The notes beneath the pieces are model-generated. The model saw only the letters and a program-made list of their open reading frames with translations, did no database searches and was not told the DNA's origin. From an uncultured Eubacteriales bacterium (lineage in GTDB: Bacteria; Bacillota; Clostridia; Christensenellales; RUG350): DNA of 54,409 nt. The stretch's first letter is position 1. Every line of letters begins with the position of its first letter. A program made the translations under genes and the position numbers. Of the stretch, positions 1 to 21,295 are shown one piece after another. The stretch is from positions 1 to 54,409 of the forward strand of contig ONBF01000002.1 of the NCBI GenBank assembly GCA_900315995.1, written 5' to 3'.

Positions 1-426
1 GGCGAGAAAGAAAAGTATACGATATTCGACGCGGCGGAATTCTTTCAGACCAAGTACCATGCTTTTCAAGTGCCGTGGGATAAAATGTTGCAGTATCTTG
101 AAGGTAAAATTATAACGACGTTTTATGAGTCTTCCGGTCTTGCGGATGACGAAATGAAACCTTTCGATTATGCGGGGAATAAGGCGCATAAGAACGTAAC
201 ATTAATAATCGACTTGGTTCATAACAGAGATTTGCGCGAAAAGTATCCCGTAATTGAACAACACGAAAAAAAGTATAAGGAAGAGTTAGCCAAATGTGTT
301 CATATAGCTAGGAACGATTATATAGTAATCGGTACGTTTGACTGGGAGACTATTGAGTCGATGTTTACGGATTGTCTAATTGATGACATTAATTATGAAA
401 TGCTGTATTTTTATCAGCACTCGTAA
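1..426 (+). CDS. Family-A repeated protein, copy 1 (5' end cut by the window edge); candidate immunity-type protein, function unknown
   Basis: Frame 1 is open from nt 1 (GEKEKYTIFDAAEFFQTKYHAFQVPWDKM...). It is colinear with the full-length paralogs at 736-1293 and 1586-2158 and ends ...YEMLYFYQHS*. Confidence 0.8.
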   Translation, partial: GEKEKYTIFDAAEFFQTKYHAFQVPWDKMLQYLEGKIITTFYESSGLADDEMKPFDYAGNKAHKNVTLIIDLVHNRDLREKYPVIEQHEKKYKEELAKCVHIARNDYIVIGTFDWETIESMFTDCLIDDINYEMLYFYQHS

Positions 427-438
427 TAAGATTATCCC

Positions 439-467
439 CCACCCCGTTAAATAACATAACGGGGTGG
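439..467. other. Cassette-boundary hairpin 1 (11 bp GC-rich stem, 7 nt loop 'aataaca')
   Basis: 'ccaccccgtta aataaca taacggggtgg' lies 13 nt after the family-A stop codon. No U-tract follows it. Confidence 0.8.
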
Positions 468-486
468 TAATGGGTATCGTATAATA

Positions 487-717
487 ATGGCAACGAATAT
501 GAGAACGTTAGGATGGAGTTCTTTAACTCAATTCGAGTCTGACGCAAAAAGCGTTATGACAAGTGCTTTCAGTGGTTACGGTTATATAATAGATAAAGAT
601 GATAAGCCTGAAAACCCTTTATTTGTACCGCATTATCATGCTTTTTTGTCTAACGGGGCTCATGTAACGGGACCGAATAATAATTCCATACACTCATATT
701 TTGCTTCTTTGCTCTAA
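487..717 (+). CDS. Small family-S ORF, copy 1 (76 aa); possible orphan toxin-tip fragment or small partner protein
   Basis: Paralog of 1352-1564, sharing MATNMRT.GWSS...DAK.V..SAF...PHY...LSNGAHV.TGPNN..IHSYF. No Shine-Dalgarno sequence lies upstream of the ATG. Confidence 0.45.
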   Translation: MATNMRTLGWSSLTQFESDAKSVMTSAFSGYGYIIDKDDKPENPLFVPHYHAFLSNGAHVTGPNNNSIHSYFASLL

Positions 718-735
718 TAAGGAGATAATGAAATA

Positions 736-1293
736 ATGGTGATTGATACAAGTTTTTATAAGTCAAAAAAGTTTTTTGCGCAGAAACTTCTACCCAAAAA
801 GGAAAGAGAAAAATATTTTGACCAAAAAATTTACGAAAGATGCATTGCCGATATAAAGAGTATAGTAGGCGATAAGGAGAAGTATACGATATTCGACGCG
901 GCAGAATTCTTTCAGACCAAGTACCATGCATTTCAAGTGCCGTGGGATAAAATGTTGCAGTATCTTGACGGTAAAATATTAACGAAGTTTTATGATAGTT
1001 CATGCTATAACAATGACGAAGTCGCACCGTTTGATTATAGAGATAATAAGGCGCATAAAAACGTAACGTTGATAATTGACTTGGTTCATAACAGAGATTT
1101 GCGTGAAAAGTATCCTGTAATTGAAAAAATGGAAAAAATGTATAAGGAAGCATTAGCCGAAGGTGTTCATATGAATAGAAACGAATTTATAACTATCGGC
1201 ACGTTTGACTGGGAGACAATCGAGTCGATGTATACTGATACTAGTATTGGCGATGTTTATTACGAAATACTGTATTTTTATGAGCACTCGTAA
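736..1293 (+). CDS. Family-A repeated protein, copy 2 (185 aa); candidate immunity-type protein
   Basis: Full ORF with an 'aaggaga' SD about 11 nt upstream. Paralogous to 1-426 and 1586-2158. No signal peptide or TM segment seen. Confidence 0.85.
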   Translation: MVIDTSFYKSKKFFAQKLLPKKEREKYFDQKIYERCIADIKSIVGDKEKYTIFDAAEFFQTKYHAFQVPWDKMLQYLDGKILTKFYDSSCYNNDEVAPFDYRDNKAHKNVTLIIDLVHNRDLREKYPVIEKMEKMYKEALAEGVHMNRNEFITIGTFDWETIESMYTDTSIGDVYYEILYFYEHS

Positions 1294-1306
1294 TAAGATT
1301 ATCCCC

Positions 1307-1333
1307 CACCCCGTTATGTTATTTAACGGGGTG
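1307..1333. other. Cassette-boundary hairpin 2 (10 bp stem, loop 'tgttatt')
   Basis: 'caccccgtta tgttatt taacggggtg'. Same stem as hairpin 1, but the loop is the reverse complement of the hairpin 1 loop. Confidence 0.8.
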
Positions 1334-1351
1334 TAACGGGACCGAATAATA

Positions 1352-1564
1352 ATGGCAACGAATATGAGAACGCAAGGTTGGAGTTCGGTTACAGTATACG
1401 AATTTGACGCAAAAATCGTTATAGAAAGTGCATTTACTATGCCTGCAACTTATGACAACCATAATGGAAAAAGTCTTCCACATTATAATATTGTATTGTC
1501 GAATGGGGCTCATGTAAGAACGGGTCCGAATAATTATGCCATACACTCATATTTTTACGCTTAA
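1352..1564 (+). CDS. Small family-S ORF, copy 2 (70 aa)
   Basis: Paralog of 487-717. The first 21 nt after the ATG are near-identical between copies. No SD upstream. Confidence 0.45.
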   Translation: MATNMRTQGWSSVTVYEFDAKIVIESAFTMPATYDNHNGKSLPHYNIVLSNGAHVRTGPNNYAIHSYFYA

Positions 1565-1585
1565 CTGAATAAAAGAATATCAGCA

Positions 1586-2158
1586 ATGTTATACGCAAGT
1601 TTTTATAAATCAAAAAAATGGTTGCCACATAAAAATATGCAAGGCTACGCTAAGTCAAATATAGAAATAAAAAAGTATAATAAGAATTATCTTGAAAAAG
1701 CGGCGGCTGATATAAAAAGTATAGTAGGCGAGAAAGATAAGTATACGATATTCGACGCGGCAGAGTTCTTTCAGACCAAGTACCATGCATTTCAAGTGCC
1801 GTGGGATAAAATGTTACAGTATCTTGACGGTAAAGTATTAACGAAGTTTTATGATGCTTCATGCCTTTTTGATGACGAAATGGCACCGTTTGATTATACA
1901 GGGAATAAGGCGCATAAGAACGTAACGTTGATAATCGACTTGGTTCATAACAGAGATTTGCGCGAAAAGTATCCTATAATAAAGCAGTTTGAAGAAGAGC
2001 GAAGAGAATTGCGGTTGAGTGGAATAAATGTAGAAATTGTTCATAACGATTTTATAGTTATCGGTACATTCGATTGGAACTCAATCGAGTCGATGTTCAC
2101 ATATTCTCCAATCGATGATATTCATTACGAAATGCTGTATTTTTATGAGCACTCGTAA
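1586..2158 (+). CDS. Family-A repeated protein, copy 3 (190 aa)
   Basis: Paralog of 736-1293. N-terminal 45 aa diverged, core 'KYTIFDAAEFFQTKYHAFQVPWDKMLQYLDGK' conserved. Weak or no SD. Confidence 0.8.
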   Translation: MLYASFYKSKKWLPHKNMQGYAKSNIEIKKYNKNYLEKAAADIKSIVGEKDKYTIFDAAEFFQTKYHAFQVPWDKMLQYLDGKVLTKFYDASCLFDDEMAPFDYTGNKAHKNVTLIIDLVHNRDLREKYPIIKQFEEERRELRLSGINVEIVHNDFIVIGTFDWNSIESMFTYSPIDDIHYEMLYFYEHS

Positions 2159-2170
2159 TAAGATTATCCC

Positions 2171-2199
2171 CCACCCCGTTAAACAACATAACGGGGTGG
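2171..2199. other. Cassette-boundary hairpin 3 (11 bp stem, loop 'aacaaca')
   Basis: 'ccaccccgtta aacaaca taacggggtgg' directly after the stop of family-A copy 3. Confidence 0.8.
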
Positions 2200-2229
2200 T
2201 AATTGGTATCGAATAATTAGGAGATAATT

Positions 2230-3024
2230 ATGAGTAGTTTTGAATTTCAACCTTTCGATAAATTGCTGAAAGAAAAATACAAAGCAAAAGTCATAGACAA
2301 ACAGATATTTCGGGATATTCTTTATGAAGGGCACAGTGAAGCATTAAGTGTATCGGAAATGACGGAAGGCATAGTGCAAACGGAAAAAGCGGTGTTTTAT
2401 TTAATAAGCAACCTTGAAGTTATTAACAAAAACTTCTCTTGTCTCTATCCCGATATGTACCCTGACGGAAAGGTTCCTCCACTGACCTCTTATGGATTTT
2501 GTTCTTTTGTTTTGTTTGTCGCAGGACTGAGCGAAGACGGTAATTATGTCGAATCATATGCGCGGTGGGGATCGTTTGCCGATAATATATTCGACGAAAT
2601 GTTGAAACTCGGTTTAATTAAGCCTAATATCGATAAAGTTAGTACAACGGAATTTACGGACGTAGAATTTCGTGGTATTGATTATCGTTTACAAAACTAT
2701 ACCGAAGTTGCACCGCAATTGGTAAAAAGTTTTTACTATATTTGTGATATAACAAAAAGCGGAGAATTGCTTGTAACTCCGATATGTTTGCCGTCTATAT
2801 ACGTTGCCTTAGACGCGCTGAATAAGGGATTGAATATATATACGTCAGATTCAATTGACGCTTATAATTTGGCTAAATCAGCATCAATCGCCGATTTTCA
2901 GCCTGAGCCTATTCGAGATCTTGCACATGTAAGCGGATATTTCGCGCATTATCACAAAACTTTGCAAATGGGGCGATCCGTATCTGATGCTTGTGCGTTT
3001 TACGGAATACCGATGGTTAAATGA
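2230..3024 (+). CDS. Family-B hypothetical protein (264 aa), second candidate immunity-type family
   Basis: ORF with an 'aggaga' SD. The N-terminal 130 aa are paralogous to 3047-3442. No recognisable catalytic motif, signal peptide or TM segment. Confidence 0.75.
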   Translation: MSSFEFQPFDKLLKEKYKAKVIDKQIFRDILYEGHSEALSVSEMTEGIVQTEKAVFYLISNLEVINKNFSCLYPDMYPDGKVPPLTSYGFCSFVLFVAGLSEDGNYVESYARWGSFADNIFDEMLKLGLIKPNIDKVSTTEFTDVEFRGIDYRLQNYTEVAPQLVKSFYYICDITKSGELLVTPICLPSIYVALDALNKGLNIYTSDSIDAYNLAKSASIADFQPEPIRDLAHVSGYFAHYHKTLQMGRSVSDACAFYGIPMVK

Positions 3025-3046
3025 ATAGACGGAAATAGGAGAAAAC

Positions 3047-3442
3047 ATGTATAATTTCGAATTTTTACCGTTGGATAAATTACTGAAGGAAAAATACAAA
3101 GCAAGCGTTATAGACAAATGGACGTTTCGTGATATATTGTATGGAAAAGGACGGAACGATTATGTCAGCGTATCTGAAATGACGGAAGATATAATACAAA
3201 CCGAAAACGCCGTTTTTTATTTAATAAACGACGTGGAGGTTATTAACAAAAACTGTATTTGTCTATATTCGTATATGTATCCCAATGAAGAACATTTGCC
3301 TACTATATCGTCAGGTTTTTGTCCTTTTATTTTGTTTGTCGTAGGACTGAGCGAAGACGGCACTCATGTCGAAGACTATGCGCGCTGGGGTTCGTTTGGT
3401 GATAATATATTCGACGAAATGGGAAAACTCGGTTTAATATAG
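3047..3442 (+). CDS. Family-B paralog, C-terminally truncated (131 aa against 264 aa)
   Basis: Aligns with residues 1 to about 131 of the 2230-3024 product (MYNFEFLPLDKLLKEKYKA... against MSSFEFQPFDKLLKEKYKA...). It stops at ...DEMGKLGLI* where the paralog continues. Confidence 0.6.
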   Translation: MYNFEFLPLDKLLKEKYKASVIDKWTFRDILYGKGRNDYVSVSEMTEDIIQTENAVFYLINDVEVINKNCICLYSYMYPNEEHLPTISSGFCPFILFVVGLSEDGTHVEDYARWGSFGDNIFDEMGKLGLI

Positions 3443-3465
3443 TGAGTGACGAATATATATCATAA

Positions 3466-3494
3466 AGGGCGTTTTTTACGTGACGCTCTTTTTT
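3466..3494 (+). terminator. Possible Rho-independent terminator closing the cassette array
   Basis: 'agggcgt'-10 nt-'acgctct' (7 bp including one G-U pair) followed by 'ttttt'. Confidence 0.45.
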
Positions 3495-3535
3495 AATTGA
3501 ATAATAAATTTCGACTTCCGAAACATACTACTATT

Positions 3536-4048
3536 ATGAAAGATACGGGAATAGTAAGAAGAATAGACGAACTCGGCAGAGTCGTTATTCCGAAAGAAAT
3601 AAGAAAGACGCTTAGGATGAAAGAGGGCGAGTCGCTCGAAATATGCACGGACGGAGACGCGGTGCTGTTAAGAAAGTATTCACTTATGAATAATATAGTC
3701 GATTTTGCCGAAGATTACGTCGATGCGCTTGCGGCGACTGCGGGTGAACCCGTCGTTATATGCGATTGCGAAAAGGTTGTTGCCGAGAGCAAAGCGCGGT
3801 CGCTTGAAGATTATCCTGTGAGTGAAGAGTTGCATAAGGTTTTGAATGCGCGCAGACCCGTAATTCTCGACGAGACGAAAAAAATTGATTTTAACGGGAT
3901 TGAGAGCAACAGTCAAATAATATGCCCGATTATATCGGACAGTGAACTTGTAGGCGGCGTCATATTGTTTCCGAAATCGGTGGGGAACGAAAAGGTGATG
4001 CTTAAACTTTGCGAGTGTGCGGCGAAATTTATCGGAAGTCAAGTATAG
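3536..4048 (+). CDS. spoVT: Stage V sporulation protein T (AbrB-type N-domain + GAF-like C-domain)
   Basis: MKDTGIVRRIDELGRVVIPKEIRKTLRMKEGE... matches the conserved SpoVT/AbrB N-terminus. About 170 aa, the typical SpoVT length. The track ORF begins at an upstream TTG that I do not favour. Confidence 0.9.
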   Translation: MKDTGIVRRIDELGRVVIPKEIRKTLRMKEGESLEICTDGDAVLLRKYSLMNNIVDFAEDYVDALAATAGEPVVICDCEKVVAESKARSLEDYPVSEELHKVLNARRPVILDETKKIDFNGIESNSQIICPIISDSELVGGVILFPKSVGNEKVMLKLCECAAKFIGSQV

Positions 4049-4084
4049 CGAAAATTGAAACGACTTTTCCGCAAGTGTTTCGGT

Positions 4085-4600
4085 TTATTGTTCCGAAACA
4101 CTTTTTAATTTTTTATGCGTTATATACGTTAATGCCATATAAACGAGAGCGCATATTGCTATTCCGCATATTATACCGACAGTATCTTTCGCGACGTCTG
4201 ACATTGAACCCGTCCTGCCTTCCACGAAAGTTTGATGCCACTCGTCCGACAGCGCGTAAATAAACGCGCTTACAAGAGTTATGACTGACGACAATAGAAC
4301 GTTGATATTGAAACTTACAAGAGTTAAAAAAAGCAATCCGCCCAAAGCGCAATATATCAGCATATGAGCGTAAGTCCTTATATTGATTTCCGTATAATAA
4401 GAAATTGAAATTTGTTCCGATTTCGAAAGGGAAGCGTAATCAGGATGTTGATTTTCGATAACTCTATCGACTACCGCGTTGCTCGTTTGTTTCGACTCGG
4501 TAACCGTCTGTGCGGAAAAACAGAATATCGTGACCGCGCACGTCACGGTCAAGAGACTGAGAATAATTCTGATTGTCCACAATATCTTTTTGTTTTTCAT
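4085..4600 (-). CDS. VanZ-like family membrane protein
   Basis: Multi-TM protein with the VanZ signature '...ALSDEWHQTFVEGRTGSMSDVAKDTVG'. Confidence 0.8.
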   Translation of the reverse strand: MKNKKILWTIRIILSLLTVTCAVTIFCFSAQTVTESKQTSNAVVDRVIENQHPDYASLSKSEQISISYYTEINIRTYAHMLIYCALGGLLFLTLVSFNINVLLSSVITLVSAFIYALSDEWHQTFVEGRTGSMSDVAKDTVGIICGIAICALVYMALTYITHKKLKSVSEQ

Positions 4601-5075
4601 TGCGCGTTTTTATAATACATACTATCGTGAAGATAATAAGTATACCCGTTAATGTTCCGCAAGTATCTATTATCACGTCCGATATTTGACAACAACGCCC
4701 CGGAACGAAGAGTTGATGTATTTCGTCGAGTATCGCGTAAATTACGCCCGCTCCGAGCGGAATAAGTATATATAAGGATACACGTTTCGATTTGAAAGTC
4801 AAGGCAAGTCCTACGCATAACGCGCCTAAAACGAGATATTCGGAATAGTGTGCGCCCGTTCTTATCAAAACGTTAATGCTTAGTAAAGCGGTATATTGTT
4901 TTGAAGCGTCCATTTCGTCGTAATCGGGATAAAACAGTTTTATAATCGGATTGACAAACGCGTCTGACGATTCTTCCGATTCAACCTGCGTTTCGTCGGA
5001 CAGAAGAAATATCCCTATCATTACCGCGAGTATTGAAATAACAAGCAATATGCGAATAAATGATTTTACCGTCAT
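4464..5075 (-). CDS. VanZ-like family membrane protein (paralog); its 3' end overlaps the next gene by 137 nt
   Basis: 'AILDEIHQLFVPGRCCQISDVIIDTCG' VanZ motif. Same architecture as 4085-4600. Confidence 0.8.
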   Translation of the reverse strand: MTVKSFIRILLVISILAVMIGIFLLSDETQVESEESSDAFVNPIIKLFYPDYDEMDASKQYTALLSINVLIRTGAHYSEYLVLGALCVGLALTFKSKRVSLYILIPLGAGVIYAILDEIHQLFVPGRCCQISDVIIDTCGTLTGILIIFTIVCIIKTRNEKQKDIVDNQNYSQSLDRDVRGHDILFFRTDGYRVETNEQRGSR

Positions 5076-5614
5076 TTAAGTATTTCGTCAGCGAAGAAGT
5101 TTCCGTCCGCATCATAAAAAGTAACTATTTCATCATCTATAACGGCGTATGTGTTGGTGCCGTTCCTCGATAAAGAAATCGAGCCCGGATTAATTACCGT
5201 GTTGGTGCCTATAAATTTTATGTAGGGAAGATGGAAATGTCCGCAACAAAGTATATCGCCCGATTTGAGCGGGGGCAGATTATGTTCATTGTAATGATCT
5301 CCGTGTGTCAAATAGATTGTTCTTCCGTTATTGTACGGCAGGCAAAAATGCTGATTAATTGTAAATTCGCTTATTTCAATATCGACGTCGCTGTCGCAGT
5401 TGCCGCGTACGGCAATTATATCGTCCTTTAACGAATTGAGTACTTTCGCCGTTGCCATAGTATCGTACTGTTCGGGAAGCGGATTGCGCGGACCGTGATA
5501 ATAATAGTCGCCGAGTAAACAAATTTTATCGGGTTTATGTTTCATAACGGCATTTTTGAGAGCGCAAGCGTATTTATATGAACCGTGGATGTCGGACGCC
5601 AATAAGTATTTCAT
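5072..5614 (-). CDS. YfcE/MJ0936-type metallophosphoesterase (phosphodiesterase)
   Basis: MKYLLASDIHGS...LGDYYYHGPRN...VRGNCD...GHFH motifs. I place the start at the ATG encoding MKYLL (nt 5614), not the upstream track start. Confidence 0.85.
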   Translation of the reverse strand: MKYLLASDIHGSYKYACALKNAVMKHKPDKICLLGDYYYHGPRNPLPEQYDTMATAKVLNSLKDDIIAVRGNCDSDVDIEISEFTINQHFCLPYNNGRTIYLTHGDHYNEHNLPPLKSGDILCCGHFHLPYIKFIGTNTVINPGSISLSRNGTNTYAVIDDEIVTFYDADGNFFADEILK

Positions 5615-5733
5615 AAACAACCTCGTAGATTTATTTCCATATAAATATATTATAAACTTAATTTTATACGCAGTCAACGGCAAAAAAAATGTAAACATAA
5701 TCGTCTTTCGGCATATATTGTTTCGGGGGCATT

Positions 5734-5985
5734 ATGAATAATATAAAAATCGAAAATAACGCCGTAGCGGAAATAAACGGTGTAAAAGAAGTGGTTGAAT
5801 TTGACGACAAAAACATCGTTTTACTGCTCGACGAATACAAACTTTTGATAAACGGTGAAAAACTGAATATGGAAAGTCTTGATACCGCAAACGGTAAAGC
5901 GGTATTCAAAGGGCTTATTTTATCCGTAAAATATATGAAAAAAGGCGTCAAGCCGTCGGGCTTTATCAAAAAACTTTTCAAATGA
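5734..5985 (+). CDS. yabP: Sporulation protein YabP
   Basis: 83 aa. '...VEFDDKNIVLLLDEYKLLINGEKLNMESLD...GFIKKLFK' resembles YabP, and a YabQ-like gene follows. Confidence 0.85.
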   Translation: MNNIKIENNAVAEINGVKEVVEFDDKNIVLLLDEYKLLINGEKLNMESLDTANGKAVFKGLILSVKYMKKGVKPSGFIKKLFK

Positions 5986-6308
5986 CGGATATAGTAAACA
6001 CCGCGATTCAACCTGTCGCGTTTGTAACATATCTTATGTACGGGCTTTTTGTCGGAGTAGCGTTTATTGTCGAAATGCCGATAAAAAAGTTTTGTAAAAT
6101 ATACGTTATAAACGTAATAACCGATTTTATTACCGCGCTTTTTGTCGGAACGGCGTTTATTTTCTTGATTAACTATACGTCGGACGGAGTGCTGCGAGCA
6201 TATACGGCGGTTGCTTACGCGCTGGGTATCACAGTCGATATTGCGATATTCAAAATTATTGCAAATATAATTTGGAGAATACGCGAACGTAAAAAGCGGA
6301 ACGCTTAG
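5982..6308 (+). CDS. yabQ: Spore cortex biosynthesis protein YabQ (small multi-TM protein)
   Basis: 108 aa, 3-4 TM segments, ATGA-coupled to yabP. The call rests on the conserved yabP-yabQ gene pair. Confidence 0.7.
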   Translation: MTDIVNTAIQPVAFVTYLMYGLFVGVAFIVEMPIKKFCKIYVINVITDFITALFVGTAFIFLINYTSDGVLRAYTAVAYALGITVDIAIFKIIANIIWRIRERKKRNA

Positions 6309-8764
6309 TTTTTCTTTCGAGCCGTTTTTTTGGACAGTATCCTTAAAAAGATTATAATGAACGCCGCCGAAAAGATTATAACAAGCGCGACTATCTGCGC
6401 AGTAGACAGCCCCGGGGTTTTAAGAGACGAAGTCAAAACGTATCCCGATATTTCTCCGAAAGTAACGAAAGTGAAAAGTTCGTCTTTATCGTAAGGCGCG
6501 GATAATTCGACTGTATCGCCGACCTTTAATATCCCGATAATAGAGGACGACTCGTTTGCCTCAGTATATATCTTAGTGTTGTCGGAACATACGTCGGCAT
6601 AGTATTTTTCGGGTGTTATCGGATCGTTCGCTTGCGAATCGCTACCGCGTTTTGAAGCCACAATGTCAGCGCGTTTAACGTATCCGACGCCACCGTCAAC
6701 GTATATCGAATACCACGCGGAATTATCGTATCCGCAAACATCACTCAGCGTTTCGATTTGCGCGCCTTTATTAAGCATCGTGAGTTTAACCGAGTTAACG
6801 TCAGGGTATTTGTATACGACAGTGTTTGCAAATAATGTCGAACCGTATTTAACAGACGGAATGCTCGAGGATAGTTCGGTAATGGAAGATTTCAAAATAA
6901 ATTCACCCGCACCGTTGCGCATAACGTAGCAAAACGTGTTTCCGTTGTGTTCATATTCTTTATTGTCAATGCAGTAAACGAGAGCGTCAATCTCGGTGTT
7001 CGCACCCGATTCGTAATCGTCGGGATATGTGAACGAGTTATAATTTCCGTTAGTTATTTTATAGATTTTCGCTTCTTTAAGAATAGGCTCGGACGATTTA
7101 CAGTCGGGTGCCGTATACGCGCTCGTAAATGTTGCCTTGTATTCTATTCCGTGCGCGTTAAGTTCTTCAAACGAAATATACGTTAAGGTATGCGGATTGT
7201 TCGATGTAAAATAAATTCCGTCGTCGGATAACGTAAAGTCGGTAGGAGTAATACCATCGACGGTTACGCAGTCGACGTATTCGTATCCCGAAAGCAATCG
7301 TTTAAGATATGTAAGTTTATAAGCATTATCGTTCTCGGTCATTATTATCAAATTGCCGCACGCGTCGCACTCAATGCGCATAACTTGTCCCGAAATGTGG
7401 ACGGACGACAGTTGAGTCGTGAATAACGTTGTTTTTGCGTCGGTATGTAAAGCGACTATGTTTTCGTTATTGACAAGGTATAATATTTTTCCGTTAAATG
7501 AGGCGCACACGTCAATGAAATTACCTCCCGCAATAAGCGACGAAGAAGAGTTTGAATAAGTGTAAACATCGCCGTTGTTGTCGATATAAAGGACGCCGTC
7601 TTTGAACGATTTAAGCGAATTGACAGTTACATTTGATATAAGCGTAGTAGCGGAATCGTTCGGGAGAGGATAAAGTTTAAGTCCTTCCGAATCGGCAAAG
7701 TAAACATCGGTCGAGTTGACGGCGACTTTATATACGCCCGTGCTCTTAATTTCGGAAGAGTTGGGGATAAGTACTCGGTCGTTACCCTTGTCGGCTATCG
7801 CAACCGTTTCACCGTCCGCACTGATTGAGACGGGATTATTAAGCCTTTCAAGCGTTGCGCCTACTGTTGTTAAAAGTTTTTCTCGCAAAAGCGTTCCGTC
7901 GTTTTGCATGTCGTACACGGCAACGCCGTTTGCAAGTGAAGAGAACGACGCATACAATTTTGAATTATAGGACGAAAGGGATATAAACTGTGAAGACGTT
8001 CCGAGAGATTCGTCGGACGAAACGGAACAAACTTCGGTATAGTCCGTCAAAGTGTATACGTGAATTTCGGTTTCCGTAAGTAAATACAGATAATTGTCAT
8101 CTGCGGAAACGGCGGTCGGATAAAACGGCAACGTAAAGGAATATTTTTCACCGCTTAATCTTATATCGGTTACGGAATTGTCCTTTCTTACGGCAAATAC
8201 GGATTGCGAGTTTGCGGCAAACAATTCGGACGAGTCGAAAGATTCTTGAATATTTTGAGATGACGCGAGTTTGCCGTTAATCGTTTCAAGCGTTTCAATG
8301 GCACTTAAATCGTAAACGTAGTAACCTGTTCGGTAACAGATGAACAGCGAATCGTTATATACGGCGAGAGATACTCCGACTATTAGAGATAATCCGACTA
8401 TTGAAGAATCGGTATGATTTCCCGTTGTCAAATCATAAATTCGCATAAGAGCGTTGTCGCCGTTGCGCAAGACACAGAACGTAAAATTTTTGTATACCGC
8501 AACGCCTACTACATTTGTATATCCGTCCATATTCAAAACTTGTTTTGTATTATCCGTTCTTGAAAGCGCGTATAACGATTCGTTTTCGGTATAAACGATA
8601 TAATCGTCGTTTACGGATAATTTTTGCGGAGAAAATTCAATGTAGTCCGTCGAATTAATCAGTGAAAAGCGTGGCGTAATATTTCCGTCCGCATAAGCAA
8701 CTGGGACGAAAGATATTATCGCAACGGCTGTTAAAATTAAGAATAACAAAAAACTTTTTTTCAT
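6305..8764 (-). CDS. Large surface protein: signal peptide, long repeat-like beta-rich region, two SH3b-like domains, C-terminal TM anchor
   Basis: N-terminus MKKSFLLFLILTAVAIISFVPVAYADG. SH3b-like segments ('...AWYSIYVDGGVGYVKRADI', '...FVTFGEISGYVLTSSLK'). C-terminal hydrophobic helix followed by KKTARKKN. Confidence 0.7.
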   Translation of the reverse strand: MKKSFLLFLILTAVAIISFVPVAYADGNITPRFSLINSTDYIEFSPQKLSVNDDYIVYTENESLYALSRTDNTKQVLNMDGYTNVVGVAVYKNFTFCVLRNGDNALMRIYDLTTGNHTDSSIVGLSLIVGVSLAVYNDSLFICYRTGYYVYDLSAIETLETINGKLASSQNIQESFDSSELFAANSQSVFAVRKDNSVTDIRLSGEKYSFTLPFYPTAVSADDNYLYLLTETEIHVYTLTDYTEVCSVSSDESLGTSSQFISLSSYNSKLYASFSSLANGVAVYDMQNDGTLLREKLLTTVGATLERLNNPVSISADGETVAIADKGNDRVLIPNSSEIKSTGVYKVAVNSTDVYFADSEGLKLYPLPNDSATTLISNVTVNSLKSFKDGVLYIDNNGDVYTYSNSSSSLIAGGNFIDVCASFNGKILYLVNNENIVALHTDAKTTLFTTQLSSVHISGQVMRIECDACGNLIIMTENDNAYKLTYLKRLLSGYEYVDCVTVDGITPTDFTLSDDGIYFTSNNPHTLTYISFEELNAHGIEYKATFTSAYTAPDCKSSEPILKEAKIYKITNGNYNSFTYPDDYESGANTEIDALVYCIDNKEYEHNGNTFCYVMRNGAGEFILKSSITELSSSIPSVKYGSTLFANTVVYKYPDVNSVKLTMLNKGAQIETLSDVCGYDNSAWYSIYVDGGVGYVKRADIVASKRGSDSQANDPITPEKYYADVCSDNTKIYTEANESSSIIGILKVGDTVELSAPYDKDELFTFVTFGEISGYVLTSSLKTPGLSTAQIVALVIIFSAAFIIIFLRILSKKTARKKN

Positions 8765-15412: not shown

Positions 15413-16258
15413 ATGAAGATAGCGATTTCGGCGGAGAACACGATTGATTTACCGAAAGAACTGCTTTGCGGTTTTGATATACACGTTATTTCTTTTAACG
15501 TAACACTCGGAGACAAAACTTCTTCCGATTTTACGAGCGCCGACGTATTCAATTACGTGGATAAAACGGGAATACTTCCCAAAACAAGCGCAATAAACGA
15601 AGTCGAATACGGTGAATTTTTCGATACGCTTTTGAAAGATTATGACGCGATTATCCATTTTACAATCAGTTCAAAAATAAGCAGTACTTATAATAATGCG
15701 GTGCGCGCGGCGAAAGAACGTAAAAACTGTTACGTTGTCGATACGCAGGCTTTGTCAACGGGTAGCGCGCTTATTGCTATATACGCGTCTCGACTTGCAA
15801 AGAAAGGACTGAGTCCCGAAGATATAGTCGATAAAGTCAACGTTCGTATTCCGTATATACAGACAAGTTTCGTCGTCGAAAGACTTGATTATCTTTATAA
15901 GGGCGGAAGATGTTCGGCACTTGCTTTATTCGGCGCAAATCTTCTTAAAATACGTCCGCAGATACAAATCAAGGAAGGCGTAATGCAACCGACAAGAAAG
16001 TACAGAGGACGTATGGACGACGTTATAAAGAAGTATTGCAAAGATACACTTGCTGAATATAACAATCCCGATAAGTCCATTGGATTCGTAACTTATTCGT
16101 CCGCAAGCGACGAAATGGTCGATGTAAGCGTAAACGCATTGAAGAACGTCGGTTTCAAAGAAATATACACAACGTTTGCGGGACCTACCGTCGGAAGTCA
16201 TTGCGGAAGAAATACGCTCGGTATTTTTTACATAAACGACGGCGGGCAAGAAGATTAA
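15413..16258 (+). CDS. DegV family (fatty-acid-binding, FakB-like) protein, paralog 1
   Basis: 281 aa. Aligns with DegV landmarks ('TS' after 'LPK', 'ISS.ISST', 'L.YLYKGGRCS', 'G.T.GSHCG'). Confidence 0.85.
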   Translation: MKIAISAENTIDLPKELLCGFDIHVISFNVTLGDKTSSDFTSADVFNYVDKTGILPKTSAINEVEYGEFFDTLLKDYDAIIHFTISSKISSTYNNAVRAAKERKNCYVVDTQALSTGSALIAIYASRLAKKGLSPEDIVDKVNVRIPYIQTSFVVERLDYLYKGGRCSALALFGANLLKIRPQIQIKEGVMQPTRKYRGRMDDVIKKYCKDTLAEYNNPDKSIGFVTYSSASDEMVDVSVNALKNVGFKEIYTTFAGPTVGSHCGRNTLGIFYINDGGQED

Positions 16259-16344
16259 TCGATATTAAGATTAAATACCTACCGCTGCTTATATTGATAT
16301 AACATATTTGAACATATTAATAAAAAATATTTTTCGAGGTTATT

Positions 16345-17190
16345 ATGAATATAGTTATTTCGGCGGAGAATACGATAGATTTACCGAAAGAATTACTTGA
16401 CAAGTATAATATACACGTTATTCCGTTTAATGTAACGCTTGGGGATCAAACGTCAAATTCGTATACGACAGCGGAGATATTCGATTACGTGGACAAAACG
16501 GGTATACTTCCAAAAACGAGTGCCGTAAACGAAGTCGAATACGGCGAGCACTTCGACGGATTATTGAAAGACTATGACGCGATTATTCATTTTGCTATCG
16601 GGTCGGGCATAAGCAGTACGATCGATAACGCAAAGCGCGCGGCGTCCGAACGTAATAATTGCTATATCGTGGACACTCAATCATTATCAACCGGCATAGC
16701 GTTACTTGCGATATATGCTTCAAAACTTGTTGAAAAAGGATTGAACGCAAAAGAGATTTACGACAAAGTAAACGCGCGTATTCCGTATGTTCAAGCAAGT
16801 TTTGTCATCGAAAGACTTGACTATCTGTACAAAGGCGGAAGATGTTCGGGGCTTGCGTTATTCGGTGCAAATCTTCTTAAAATCCGTCCGCAAATACAGA
16901 TAAAGAACGGCAAAATGCAACCGACAAGAAAGTATAGGGGACGTATGGAAGACGTATTCAGGAAAAATTGCGAAGATACGCTTGCCGAATTTAACAATCC
17001 CGATAAGTCCATAGGTTTCGTAACTTATACGTCCGCAAGCGACGAAATGGTAAAAATAGGTATCGACGCGTTGAAAAACGCGGGATTTGAAACAGTATAC
17101 AACACTTTCGCGGGTTCGACGATAGGAAGTCATTGCGGAAGAAATACAATCGGTATCTTGTACATAAACGACGGCGGGCAAGAAGATTAA
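16345..17190 (+). CDS. DegV family protein, paralog 2
   Basis: 281 aa, colinear with 15413-16258 without gaps. Confidence 0.85.
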   Translation: MNIVISAENTIDLPKELLDKYNIHVIPFNVTLGDQTSNSYTTAEIFDYVDKTGILPKTSAVNEVEYGEHFDGLLKDYDAIIHFAIGSGISSTIDNAKRAASERNNCYIVDTQSLSTGIALLAIYASKLVEKGLNAKEIYDKVNARIPYVQASFVIERLDYLYKGGRCSGLALFGANLLKIRPQIQIKNGKMQPTRKYRGRMEDVFRKNCEDTLAEFNNPDKSIGFVTYTSASDEMVKIGIDALKNAGFETVYNTFAGSTIGSHCGRNTIGILYINDGGQED

Positions 17191-17303
17191 GCGATGCGAA
17201 GATAAATTTAAGTCTTACGTTGACTGTATCTATCGATTTAACGTAAAGCGCATCTATATGACGCTTTTGAATAAATTAATAAAATTTTTTTCGAGGTTAA
17301 TTT

Positions 17304-18149
17304 ATGAATATAGCGATTTCAGCGGAGAATACGATTGATTTACCGAAAGAGTTACTTGACAAGTATAATATATACATTATTTCGTTTAACATAACGCTCG
17401 GAGATCAAACGTCAAATTCGTATACGACTGCGGAAGTTTTCGATTACGTTGACAGAACGGGGATATTTCCGAAGACAAGCGCGTTGAACGAAATTGAATA
17501 CGGCGAGTATTTCGACGGGCTGTTGAAAGATTATGACGCGGTTATTCACTTTGCACTCGGTTCGGGTGTAAGCAGTACGATCGATAACGCAAAGCGCGCG
17601 GCGTCCGAACGTAAGAATTGCTACGTTGTGGACAGTTTGTCTATATCGACAGGCATAGCATTACCTGCAATATATGCATCGAAACTTGTTCAAAAAGGTA
17701 TGGACGCAAAAGAAATATACGATAAGGTAAACGCGCGTATTCCGTACGTTCAATTAAGTTTCGTGGTTGAGAAACTCGATTATTTCCACAAAAGCGGAAG
17801 ATGTTCGGGACTTGCGTTAATAGGTGCGAATCTTCTTAAAATCCATCCGCAAGTTAAAATGAAGAACGGCAAAATGCAACCTGCCAAAAAGTACAGGGGG
17901 CGTATGGAAGAAGTATTCAAAAAGTATTGCGAAGATACACTTGCCGAATTTAATAATCCGGATAAGTCAATAGGCTTTGTGACCTACTCGTCCGCAAGCG
18001 ACGAAATGGTAAAAATAGGTATCGACGCGTTGAAAAACGCGGGGTTTGAGACGATATACAACACTTTTGCAGGTCCGACGATAGGTAGCCATTGCGGTAA
18101 AAATGCAATCGGCATAGTATACATTAACGACGGGAAACAAGAAGATTAA
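17304..18149 (+). CDS. DegV family protein, paralog 3
   Basis: 281 aa, colinear with the other two copies. Has 'YFHKSGRCS' in place of 'YLYKGGRCS'. Confidence 0.85.
   Translation: MNIAISAENTIDLPKELLDKYNIYIISFNITLGDQTSNSYTTAEVFDYVDRTGIFPKTSALNEIEYGEYFDGLLKDYDAVIHFALGSGVSSTIDNAKRAASERKNCYVVDSLSISTGIALPAIYASKLVQKGMDAKEIYDKVNARIPYVQLSFVVEKLDYFHKSGRCSGLALIGANLLKIHPQVKMKNGKMQPAKKYRGRMEEVFKKYCEDTLAEFNNPDKSIGFVTYSSASDEMVKIGIDALKNAGFETIYNTFAGPTIGSHCGKNAIGIVYINDGKQED

Positions 18150-19036: not shown

Positions 19037-21295
<2,259 letters not shown>

Follow-up and report, generated by a model that had tools for sequence, protein, structure and literature searches.

Two families of short open reading frames (ORFs), termed S and A, alternate in a tandem array at the start of contig ONBF01000002.1 from an uncultured Eubacteriales bacterium (assembly GCA_900315995.1; the 54,409 nucleotides analyzed are hereafter called the window), raising the question of what these paired genes are and to which larger system they belong. 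In contact-dependent growth inhibition (CDI) and Rhs loci, silent 3' fragments of the toxin gene and their own immunity genes lie downstream of the full-length toxin and carry a short 5' homology block. An original prediction for this DNA had proposed that the S ORFs are orphan toxin tips of this kind, that the A ORFs encode their immunity proteins, and that a parent toxin gene lies upstream of position 1. From the analyses described here, positions 1-3491 probably represent the distal part of a polymorphic toxin locus with orphan cassettes in an uncultured gut Clostridia bacterium, with toxicity, immunity, and processing being predicted functions.

Organization of the array

The array is built from a unit of ~865 nt (an A gene, a hairpin, and an S fragment) present in 2.6 copies within positions 1-2229, in agreement with the earlier estimate of 2.5 copies of 860-867 bp. 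Throughout, L-numbers denote contigs or loci from other assemblies, P-numbers denote proteins of the toxin family, and coordinates refer to the window unless an L-number is given. A repeat search returned three in-register repeats (1-273, 868-1140, and 1727-1999; 84-86% identity) and a second set (313-485, 1180-1352, and 2045-2217; 76-87% identity), with unit spacings of 867 and 859-865 nt; TRF missed the array because the period of the unit exceeds 500, the longest that it detects. Each unit runs from the A gene to a hairpin 12 nt past its stop codon, a 19-nt filler, the S ORF, and an 18-21-nt spacer leading to the next A gene. The same arrangement was found in two more assemblies, L001 (44 mismatches in 11.3 kb) and L002 (0 mismatches in 4192 nt), and the array is therefore not an assembly artefact. 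The repeated system runs past position 2229, through two further genes (B1 and B2), to position 3491, and comprises the following features:

1..426, + strand: A1, the 3' 142 codons and stop of a 183-aa A-family gene truncated by the window edge (L002 extension; tblastn, 75% identity to A3)
439..467, + strand: hairpin 1, CCACCCCGTTA-AATAACA-TAACGGGGTGG, 12 nt past the A1 stop, without a T-run
468..486, + strand: junction filler TAATGGGTATCGTATAATA between hairpin 1 and S1 (repeat family D9; unit alignment)
487..717, + strand: S1, orphan 3' cassette of 76 codons, without a Shine-Dalgarno sequence (blastp, 64% to P0015 residues 329-402; AlphaFold2 domain limits)
736..1293, + strand: A2, orphan A-family gene of 185 aa with AAGGAG ahead (ratio of nonsynonymous to synonymous substitution rates, dN/dS, 0.28-0.43 against A1 and A3)
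1305..1333, + strand: hairpin 2, identical stem, loop TGTTATT being the reverse complement of loops 1 and 3
1352..1564, + strand: S2, orphan 3' cassette of 70 codons, without a Shine-Dalgarno sequence (first 59 nt of homology identical to the parent gene)
1586..2158, + strand: A3, orphan A-family gene of 190 aa (ORF call, A-family homology, dN/dS)
2171..2199, + strand: hairpin 3, with the same filler after it and then the ribosome-binding site of B1
2230..3024, + strand: B1, 264 aa, a B-family immunity-like module fused in frame to a type-2 toxin domain
3047..3442, + strand: B2, 131 aa, B-family, predicted immunity protein for the toxin domain of B1
3464..3491, + strand: intrinsic terminator-like hairpin with a T-run, likely the 3' end of the toxin-to-B2 unit

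The earlier description of the array held on direct reading, with S ORFs of 70-76 aa, A ORFs of 185-190 aa, and the conserved hairpin all located as described. The S fragments share the 5' end ATGGCAACGAATATGAGAACG and a C-terminal block (..SNGAHV(R)TGPNN..IHSYF), an AGGAG-like motif is absent ahead of both S1 and S2, the strong Shine-Dalgarno sequence reported for the second A copy is the AAGGAG listed above, and the A block KYTIFDAAEFFQTKYHAFQVPWDKMLQYL is present in the sequence. The filler TAATGGGTATCGTATAATA also resembles a stretch (GTAACGGGACCGAATAAT) within the 3' part of the S fragments.

The parent toxin gene

The parent gene predicted upstream of position 1 was recovered through two overlapping contigs. 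L002 reaches 148 nt further upstream than the window and completes A1 (183 aa, AAAGGAG, TTG start), and its first 62 nt overlap exactly with the final 62 nt of L012, which comes from another sample. On L012, a 404-aa ORF (P0015) has its stop codon 21 nt before the A1 start, and both S1 and S2 are homologous to its last ~70 residues (residues 329-404 for S1). The homology of the parent 3' end and A1 with S1 and A2, and with S2 and A3, opens at AATAATAATGGCAACG in the last 9 nt of the filler, 9 nt ahead of an internal Met codon, and the apparent start codon of S is Met329 of P0015. From AATAATAATGGCAACG onward the match to the parent is exact for 59 nt in S2 and for 27 nt in S1; the 'ATNMRT.GWSS' block by which the parent was expected to be recognized is thus present in its 3' region, with DNA equal to that of S2 over those 59 nt. 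Additionally, the genes of distant A relatives (49-51% identity) lie 18 nt downstream of the gene for a 398-aa protein, and S aligns over its full length with the final 70 residues of this protein (...MKTNMRIQGWSS...LPHYHIVLTNKSHLTAGPYNYTVHSYFFA).

Upstream of the full-length toxin gene, at L012 473-560 and L058 879-990, the end of another array was observed, consisting of an A gene, a hairpin, a ~50-nt B2 3' remnant, and the same terminator. The observation points to a tandem of two toxin loci, with B1-B2 deleted from the first.

A family of polymorphic toxins in uncultured Clostridia

A search with the 398-aa relative found 80 homologues, which are ~350-480 aa long and all come from uncultured Clostridia and from metagenomes of gut or rumen, and 39 loci were located in species-representative genomes (Ca. 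Scatosoma, Christensenella(ceae), Ca. Coproplasma, Ca. Gallimonas, and metagenome-assembled genomes labelled 'Clostridia bacterium'). Across 79 aligned homologues, column identity is high up to approximately residue 250 and then collapses. The conserved N-terminal ~250 aa contain a positively charged N-terminus with a ~20-residue hydrophobic segment (a signal or anchor), an acidic beta-rich domain, an invariant LLS..G core, and a ~70-residue hydrophobic stretch rich in Ala, Gly, Val, and Thr; for the N-terminal region of the parent, no match was found in Pfam, NCBIfam, PADLOC, PHROGs, or PDB. The C-termini fall into at least 8 unrelated types or clusters, among them Ntox35 in P0074 (35.6 bits; Pfam cut-off 23.6), Ntox37 in P0059 (28.0 bits; cut-off 27.8), and WHH (39.9 bits) together with Colicin-DNase (29.6 bits) in P0079, both above Pfam thresholds; papain-like matches in family members stay below threshold. 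Orphan C-terminal fragments downstream of toxins also occur elsewhere in the family (L037, L040, L041, L050, and L052).

Combined, the conserved N-terminus with variable C-termini, the members with Ntox35, Ntox37, and WHH domains, and the C-terminal swap at L017 described below bear out the parent as a polymorphic toxin. The class expected of it was not found: no LXG, WXG100, Rhs/YD, MafB, or haemagglutinin-repeat domains were detected when P0015 and the parents in L005 and L011 were scanned against Pfam, the parent instead being a ~400-aa protein with a Sec-type signal or anchor. A scan of JGI metagenomes with P0015 gave no match, and neither did a scan of viral contigs with the family profile, which argues against a phage-borne system. 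This toxin family of uncultured gut Clostridia appears to be previously undescribed. At L018, two full-length family toxins stand in tandem (3729-4910 and 6001-7182) with papain-like and S-like C-termini and differing downstream genes.

S cassettes as half of a toxin domain

In the AlphaFold2 model of P0015 (74-sequence alignment), residues ~255-404 form one confident, compact domain (predicted local distance difference test, pLDDT, 85-97) ordered beta-beta-alpha-beta-beta-alpha-beta-alpha-beta-beta-beta, and S begins at its second helix (326-336). An alignment places the S-type domain, the type-2 domain, and two further types on one shared scaffold with an HxH...H motif, in which the first His of HYH is invariant and the second His and the last His (HS[FY][FY] / HAFYG) are near-invariant. 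Since S spans residues 329-404 of a single domain and starts at this helix, it is modelled as the C-terminal half of a ~150-aa domain, holding the putative metal or catalytic residues, and is not a free-standing toxin. The proposal of orphan toxin tips therefore stands in part: S is homologous to the parent C-terminus and lacks a start signal, but it is half a domain and not the complete toxin domain expected of such tips, which is found in the C-terminal half of B1 (type-2). Because the N-terminal half of the domain is missing, S alone would not be a functional toxin.

Searches of S, A, and B against Pfam, NCBIfam, PADLOC, and PHROGs returned only noise (the best match, T6SS_Tdi1_C at E=0.079, was disregarded). 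For the S-type domain, no Pfam family, PDB sequence, or PDB fold matched: a Foldseek search of the whole P0015 model against PDB gave nothing at E<=0.001, and a profile search of PDB sequences with the alignment of the toxin C-terminal domain gave no match. The earlier suggestion that S and A are undescribed families thus agrees with these results, and unrelated functions for them gained no support. With low confidence, the S-type domain can be guessed to be a metal-dependent enzyme.

A genes as predicted immunity genes

The A family is rare, with 11 clusters among 5.8 billion proteins and, in a profile search, 44 representatives among 1.84 billion, and the A sequence read directly contains no signal peptide or hydrophobic segment. 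The gene immediately downstream of each toxin tracks the C-terminal type: an A-family protein follows all seven distinct S-type toxins having a downstream ORF, as the proposed pairing of S with A would have it, the I5 family follows both WHH toxins, and each of three subtypes of the HYH type-2 cluster has its own downstream family. B follows type-2 toxins in L013-L017 and L035, and the gaps between toxin and downstream gene are 14-18 nt in L005 and L013. Additionally, an A homologue stands alone, with the toxin absent, in L003, and the A copies are under purifying selection (dN/dS 0.25-0.43). This covariation, the orphan A in L003, and the purifying selection are standard comparative signatures of immunity genes, and from them A1 is inferred to be the cognate immunity protein of the full-length toxin. 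The A3 model is poor (pLDDT 61.5) and its Foldseek matches (E>1) are therefore meaningless; neither a profile search with the A alignment among PDB sequences nor scanning distant relatives of A against Pfam gave a match.

The B1-B2 module and a C-terminal swap

The genes that follow A3 belong to another toxin type. B1 residues 1-~130 form an immunity-like module of the B family (type-2), with 69% identity to B2 and 49% to a 131-aa protein encoded after the type-2 toxin P0054, and residues ~125-264 form a complete orphan type-2 toxin C-terminal domain (36-48% to the C-termini of P0031, P0068, P0054, and others). B2 is 54% identical to the 131-aa protein at L013:9125-9520, directly after P0054. 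Homology of the B N-terminal half to the toxin N-terminal domain was considered and rejected (hmmsearch E>0.09).

At L017, the first 704 nt of the toxin gene are 93% identical to the P0015 gene and are followed by a different (type-2) C-terminus and a different downstream gene; the locus then continues with B1- and B2-like genes and the same terminator, 93% identical to window positions 2226-3494. Compared to L017, the window lineage thus carries an S-type C-terminus, A1, S1, A2, S2, and A3 in place of the type-2 C-terminus. As judged from this comparison of sequences, the predicted older B1-B2 module of the other toxin type has been left behind and displaced downstream. The immunity-toxin fusion itself also occurs at L017 10001-10795 (90% amino acid identity), directly after the full-length type-2 toxin. 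In both B1 and the L017 fusion, the last near-invariant His of the toxin domain is a Cys (..SDACAFYG..).

Proposed recombination between cassettes

The description of the A copies as mosaics was supported by 40-column blocks, in which pairwise identity between units ranges from 35% to 100%. Variable segments lie in the middle of S, across the first ~45 codons of A, and in two patches inside A, and conserved blocks with exact matches of 26-59 nt border them. The P0015 C-terminus is itself a mosaic, with both ends S2-like (95-98%) and the middle S1-like. Module order also differs between loci: L057 carries the end of a P0015-like C-terminus, another A variant, a hairpin, an S2-like cassette, and an A3-like gene, and L058-61 carry a hairpin, an S1-like cassette, an A2-like gene, a hairpin, a B2 3' remnant, the terminator, and a toxin start. 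Homologous recombination via the flanking conserved blocks could shift a cassette and variable parts of A into the expressed toxin gene or between copies, and such exchange would alter toxin and immunity specificity. Downstream A and B genes, if co-transcribed to the single terminator, would retain or broaden immunity.

Hairpins and transcription

A hairpin with a perfect 11-bp stem and a 7-nt loop follows each A stop codon; the pattern occurs 3 times in 54 kb versus 0 times in 100 shuffles, with folding energies of -21 to -26 kcal/mol (z -2.3 to -4.4). The 3' edge of the hairpin joins three different sequences, which are an S cassette, the ribosome-binding site of B1, and what is left of a deleted B2, and the hairpin could serve as an RNA 3'-end stabilizer, a partial terminator, or a recombination boundary. 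Between copies of the otherwise identical hairpin the loop is inverted (AATAACA/AACAACA versus TGTTATT) in the window, at L012 445-473, in L057, and in L058-61, and these flips fit small inversions that would be mediated by the perfect 11-bp stem.

The hairpins carry no T-runs and no T-run terminator was found ahead of 3464; the site at 3464-3491 is the sole + strand terminator-like site outside ORFs within 1-3600, and it is conserved in L017, where it follows B2, as well as in L012 and L058-61, where it follows the deleted B remnant. A promoter scan showed no enrichment over shuffles, and no promoter is claimed for S, just ahead of which (S1) a TATAAT sits. Rfam gave zero matches within 1-6000; S is therefore not a known leader or riboswitch, a candidate excluded on this basis. 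In the simplest reading, one transcript would run from the toxin promoter to 3491, with A1, A2, (A3), B1, and B2 translated and S untranslated.

Linked protease and proposed delivery

A trypsin-like peptidase gene is present at 31 of the 39 genomic loci, usually ending 10-40 nt ahead of the toxin start and, in S-type loci, following A. The encoded peptidase matches Pfam Trypsin_2 (7.7e-25) and Trypsin (4.8e-13) and has an N-terminal transmembrane segment and recognizable His, Asp, and GNSGG Ser motifs. The Ala/Val/Gly-rich hydrophobic stretch of the toxin recurs in P0091 (259 aa), an Rhs C-terminal fragment in which it lies directly after the DPSGN cleavage motif and before a GIY-YIG-like domain; P0091 is the sole protein of the family search with an Rhs end and is an unrelated fragment. 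The stretch looks like a pre-toxin module common to several delivery systems, and it is proposed as an entry module because in P0091 it belongs to the released toxin piece. A possible route is that Sec exports the toxin and the membrane-bound trypsin-like protease of the family cleaves near the start of the hydrophobic stretch, perhaps close to a conserved LIKK that immediately precedes it; the stretch would then aid entry of the toxin domain into a target cell to be harmed by a metal-dependent activity.

Alternative explanations

Several results weigh against an orphan-bearing toxin locus. The parent gene lies off the window contig, its adjacency resting on the 62-nt overlap between contigs of two other samples in a repeat-rich region, and the trypsin-like gene is absent within the 54-kb window and beside the closely related L017 locus. 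No relative of known activity was detected for the toxin domain (Foldseek against PDB, Pfam), the A model (pLDDT 61.5) gives no support from its fold, and no membrane topology could be read for the hydrophobic stretch (pLDDT <50). Additionally, S, as half a domain, could be inert debris. The last point leads to a rival account in which tandem duplication of the toxin 3' end and its immunity gene produced the array, leaving S as dead remnants that play no part in diversification and extra A copies that alone matter, by broadening immunity against the toxins of neighbours. The relaxed dN/dS of the S copies (0.5-0.97), the half-domain without a ribosome-binding site, the purifying selection on A, and the toxin-free A homologue in L003 all agree with such duplication. 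It is nonetheless unlikely: S1, S2, and their L057 and L058-61 counterparts keep open frames through several in-frame indels and ~30% amino acid divergence, S2-like and S1-like blocks are combined in the expressed parent C-terminus, and module order varies by strain.

Two other accounts would assign A a different role, and both are less probable than duplication. S and A could be independent small toxin-antitoxin pairs acting inside the producer (addiction or abortive infection), as a small ORF beside a larger one, neither with a signal peptide, in an unannotated system might suggest; this is very improbable, as S lacks a ribosome-binding site and begins at a Met that is internal to a larger protein and lies mid-way in a folded domain, all distant relatives have this domain at the C-terminus of exported ~400-aa proteins, PADLOC gave zero matches, and no family member occurs among the viral contigs scanned. 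It is equally hard to credit that A assists the toxin C-terminus as an export chaperone or accessory factor, like those known for some secretion-system effectors. Adjacency and covariation with C-terminal type would suit a specific chaperone equally well, and the poor A model gives no fold to the contrary, but a cytosolic C-terminus-specific chaperone is unexpected because the toxin has a Sec-type N-terminus, the toxin-free A in L003 and the extra copies here are typical of immunity genes, and a small gene also occupies this downstream position in members whose domains are known nucleases or RNases. The distal part of a polymorphic toxin locus with orphan cassettes therefore remains the preferred reading.

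Other genes in the window and related loci

Beyond the array, two adjacent VanZ-like membrane protein genes (4085-5075, - strand) lie beside spoVT (3497-4048), and a yabP-like gene with the sporulation genes after it places the host in a spore-forming Clostridia lineage. DegV-family paralogues, three in tandem and each 281 aa long, occupy 15413-18149 (+ strand), and a 747-aa ORF at 19052-21295 (+ strand) combines an IMP dehydrogenase (with a CBS pair) and a C-terminal LPG_synthase_C-like domain in an unusual fusion. At L005 917-3280, a 787-aa MACPF/perforin-domain protein is encoded in a variable island upstream of the rplJ-rplL-linked toxin locus of a related species.

Comparison with known systems

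Of the features that define polymorphic toxins in Zhang et al. 2012, a conserved N-terminus with alternative C-termini, known toxin domains, and a covarying gene downstream are present here. Features of an orphan array are present as well, the cassettes lying downstream of a same-family toxin (in related samples) without start signals of their own and with a shared 5' homology block. The orphan cdiA-CT/cdiI and rhs-CT/rhsI modules of CDI and Rhs loci (Poole et al. 2011, PMC3150448) resemble the present array as silent 3' fragments, each with an immunity gene and a 5' homology block, and the downstream displacement of an earlier C-terminus/immunity pair in such loci is paralleled here by B1-B2. 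Unlike the CDI and Rhs systems, the parent here is a ~400-aa Sec-type Gram-positive protein without a two-partner-secretion filament or Rhs shell, the S cassettes encode half-domains with a hairpin marking each cassette end, and the homology block lies inside the toxin domain rather than at a pre-toxin motif (VENN, PxxxxDPxGL).

In the S8-associated polymorphic toxin system (S8-PTS) of Bacillales and Actinobacteria (Li, Tan & Zhang 2022), the exported toxin is cut outside the cell, and thereby activated, by a subtilase that has a gene of its own (PMC9424270; bioRxiv 10.1101/2025.07.24.666436), and this system has been described as the first kind of operon-linked releasing protease (PMC9424270). 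It shares with the present family an operon-linked peptidase, a Sec-exported toxin with a conserved N-terminus and many C-termini, an immunity gene (PMC9424270), and the use of Ntox35. The N-terminal domain modelled for P0015 (acidic, ~7 strands and a helix; pLDDT 55-80) is similar to the published description of the S8-PTS BetaH domain, and ColN and TipC were not among the 50 matches listed for Foldseek of the toxin model. The present family differs in that the linked peptidase is trypsin-like and not an S8 subtilase, in that an extra ~70-aa Ala/Gly/Val hydrophobic stretch precedes the toxin, and in its hosts, which are uncultured Clostridia (Christensenella, Ca. Scatosoma, Coproplasma, and others); the word 'orphan' is absent from the main text of the S8-PTS paper (PMC9424270). 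The toxins dependent on PrsW (Zhang et al. 2012, PMC3482391) likewise combine a membrane-associated N-terminal module with proteolytic release of the C-terminal toxin in mainly Gram-positive bacteria. In those toxins a multi-pass PrsW lies within the toxin, whereas here PrsW is absent and the candidate peptidase is separate, single-pass, and trypsin-like. The immunity arrays EsaG and TsaI of type VII secretion (T7SS; PMC9484751) resemble the A copies as non-identical immunity paralogues beside a polymorphic toxin in Firmicutes that form recombination mosaics; they differ in that no T7SS, WXG, or LXG component is present here, the immunity copies alternate with toxin cassettes, and the families are unrelated.

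The searchable literature, the coverage of which is incomplete, yielded no account of a polymorphic toxin system linked to a trypsin-like protease or of such toxins in Christensenellaceae, and Pfam, NCBIfam, PDB, and that literature hold no entry for the N-terminal module, the trypsin link, the HxH...H superfamily, the A and B families, the half-domain cassettes, or the B1 fusion. It is possible, if short of probable, that all of these together constitute an undescribed class of Sec-dependent polymorphic toxin system in uncultured, Christensenellales-like gut Clostridia, defined jointly by a trypsin-like releasing protease, a hydrophobic entry module, a new HxH...H superfamily (~120-170 aa), half-domain cassette swapping with a loop-flipping hairpin, and an immunity-toxin fusion. 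In such a class, swapping may be confined to the immunity-specifying C-terminal half of the toxin domain and the immunity-gene segments that match it, with short conserved blocks at the borders of the cassettes.

In densely populated habitats like the gut, competition between strains is shaped by polymorphic toxins, and little is known of them in abundant uncultured Christensenellales-like Clostridia. The locus would contribute a toxin family whose trafficking module is new, a second type of operon-linked protease for release, a new superfamily of widely varied toxin domains that has a putative metal site, and two new families of immunity proteins. The half-domain cassettes with their matching mosaic immunity genes would additionally provide a compact natural system for mapping the segments that set toxin-immunity specificity. 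Overall, the locus is in its logic a classical polymorphic toxin locus, with orphan modules in the manner of CDI and Rhs systems and mosaic immunity paralogues in the manner of the T7SS.

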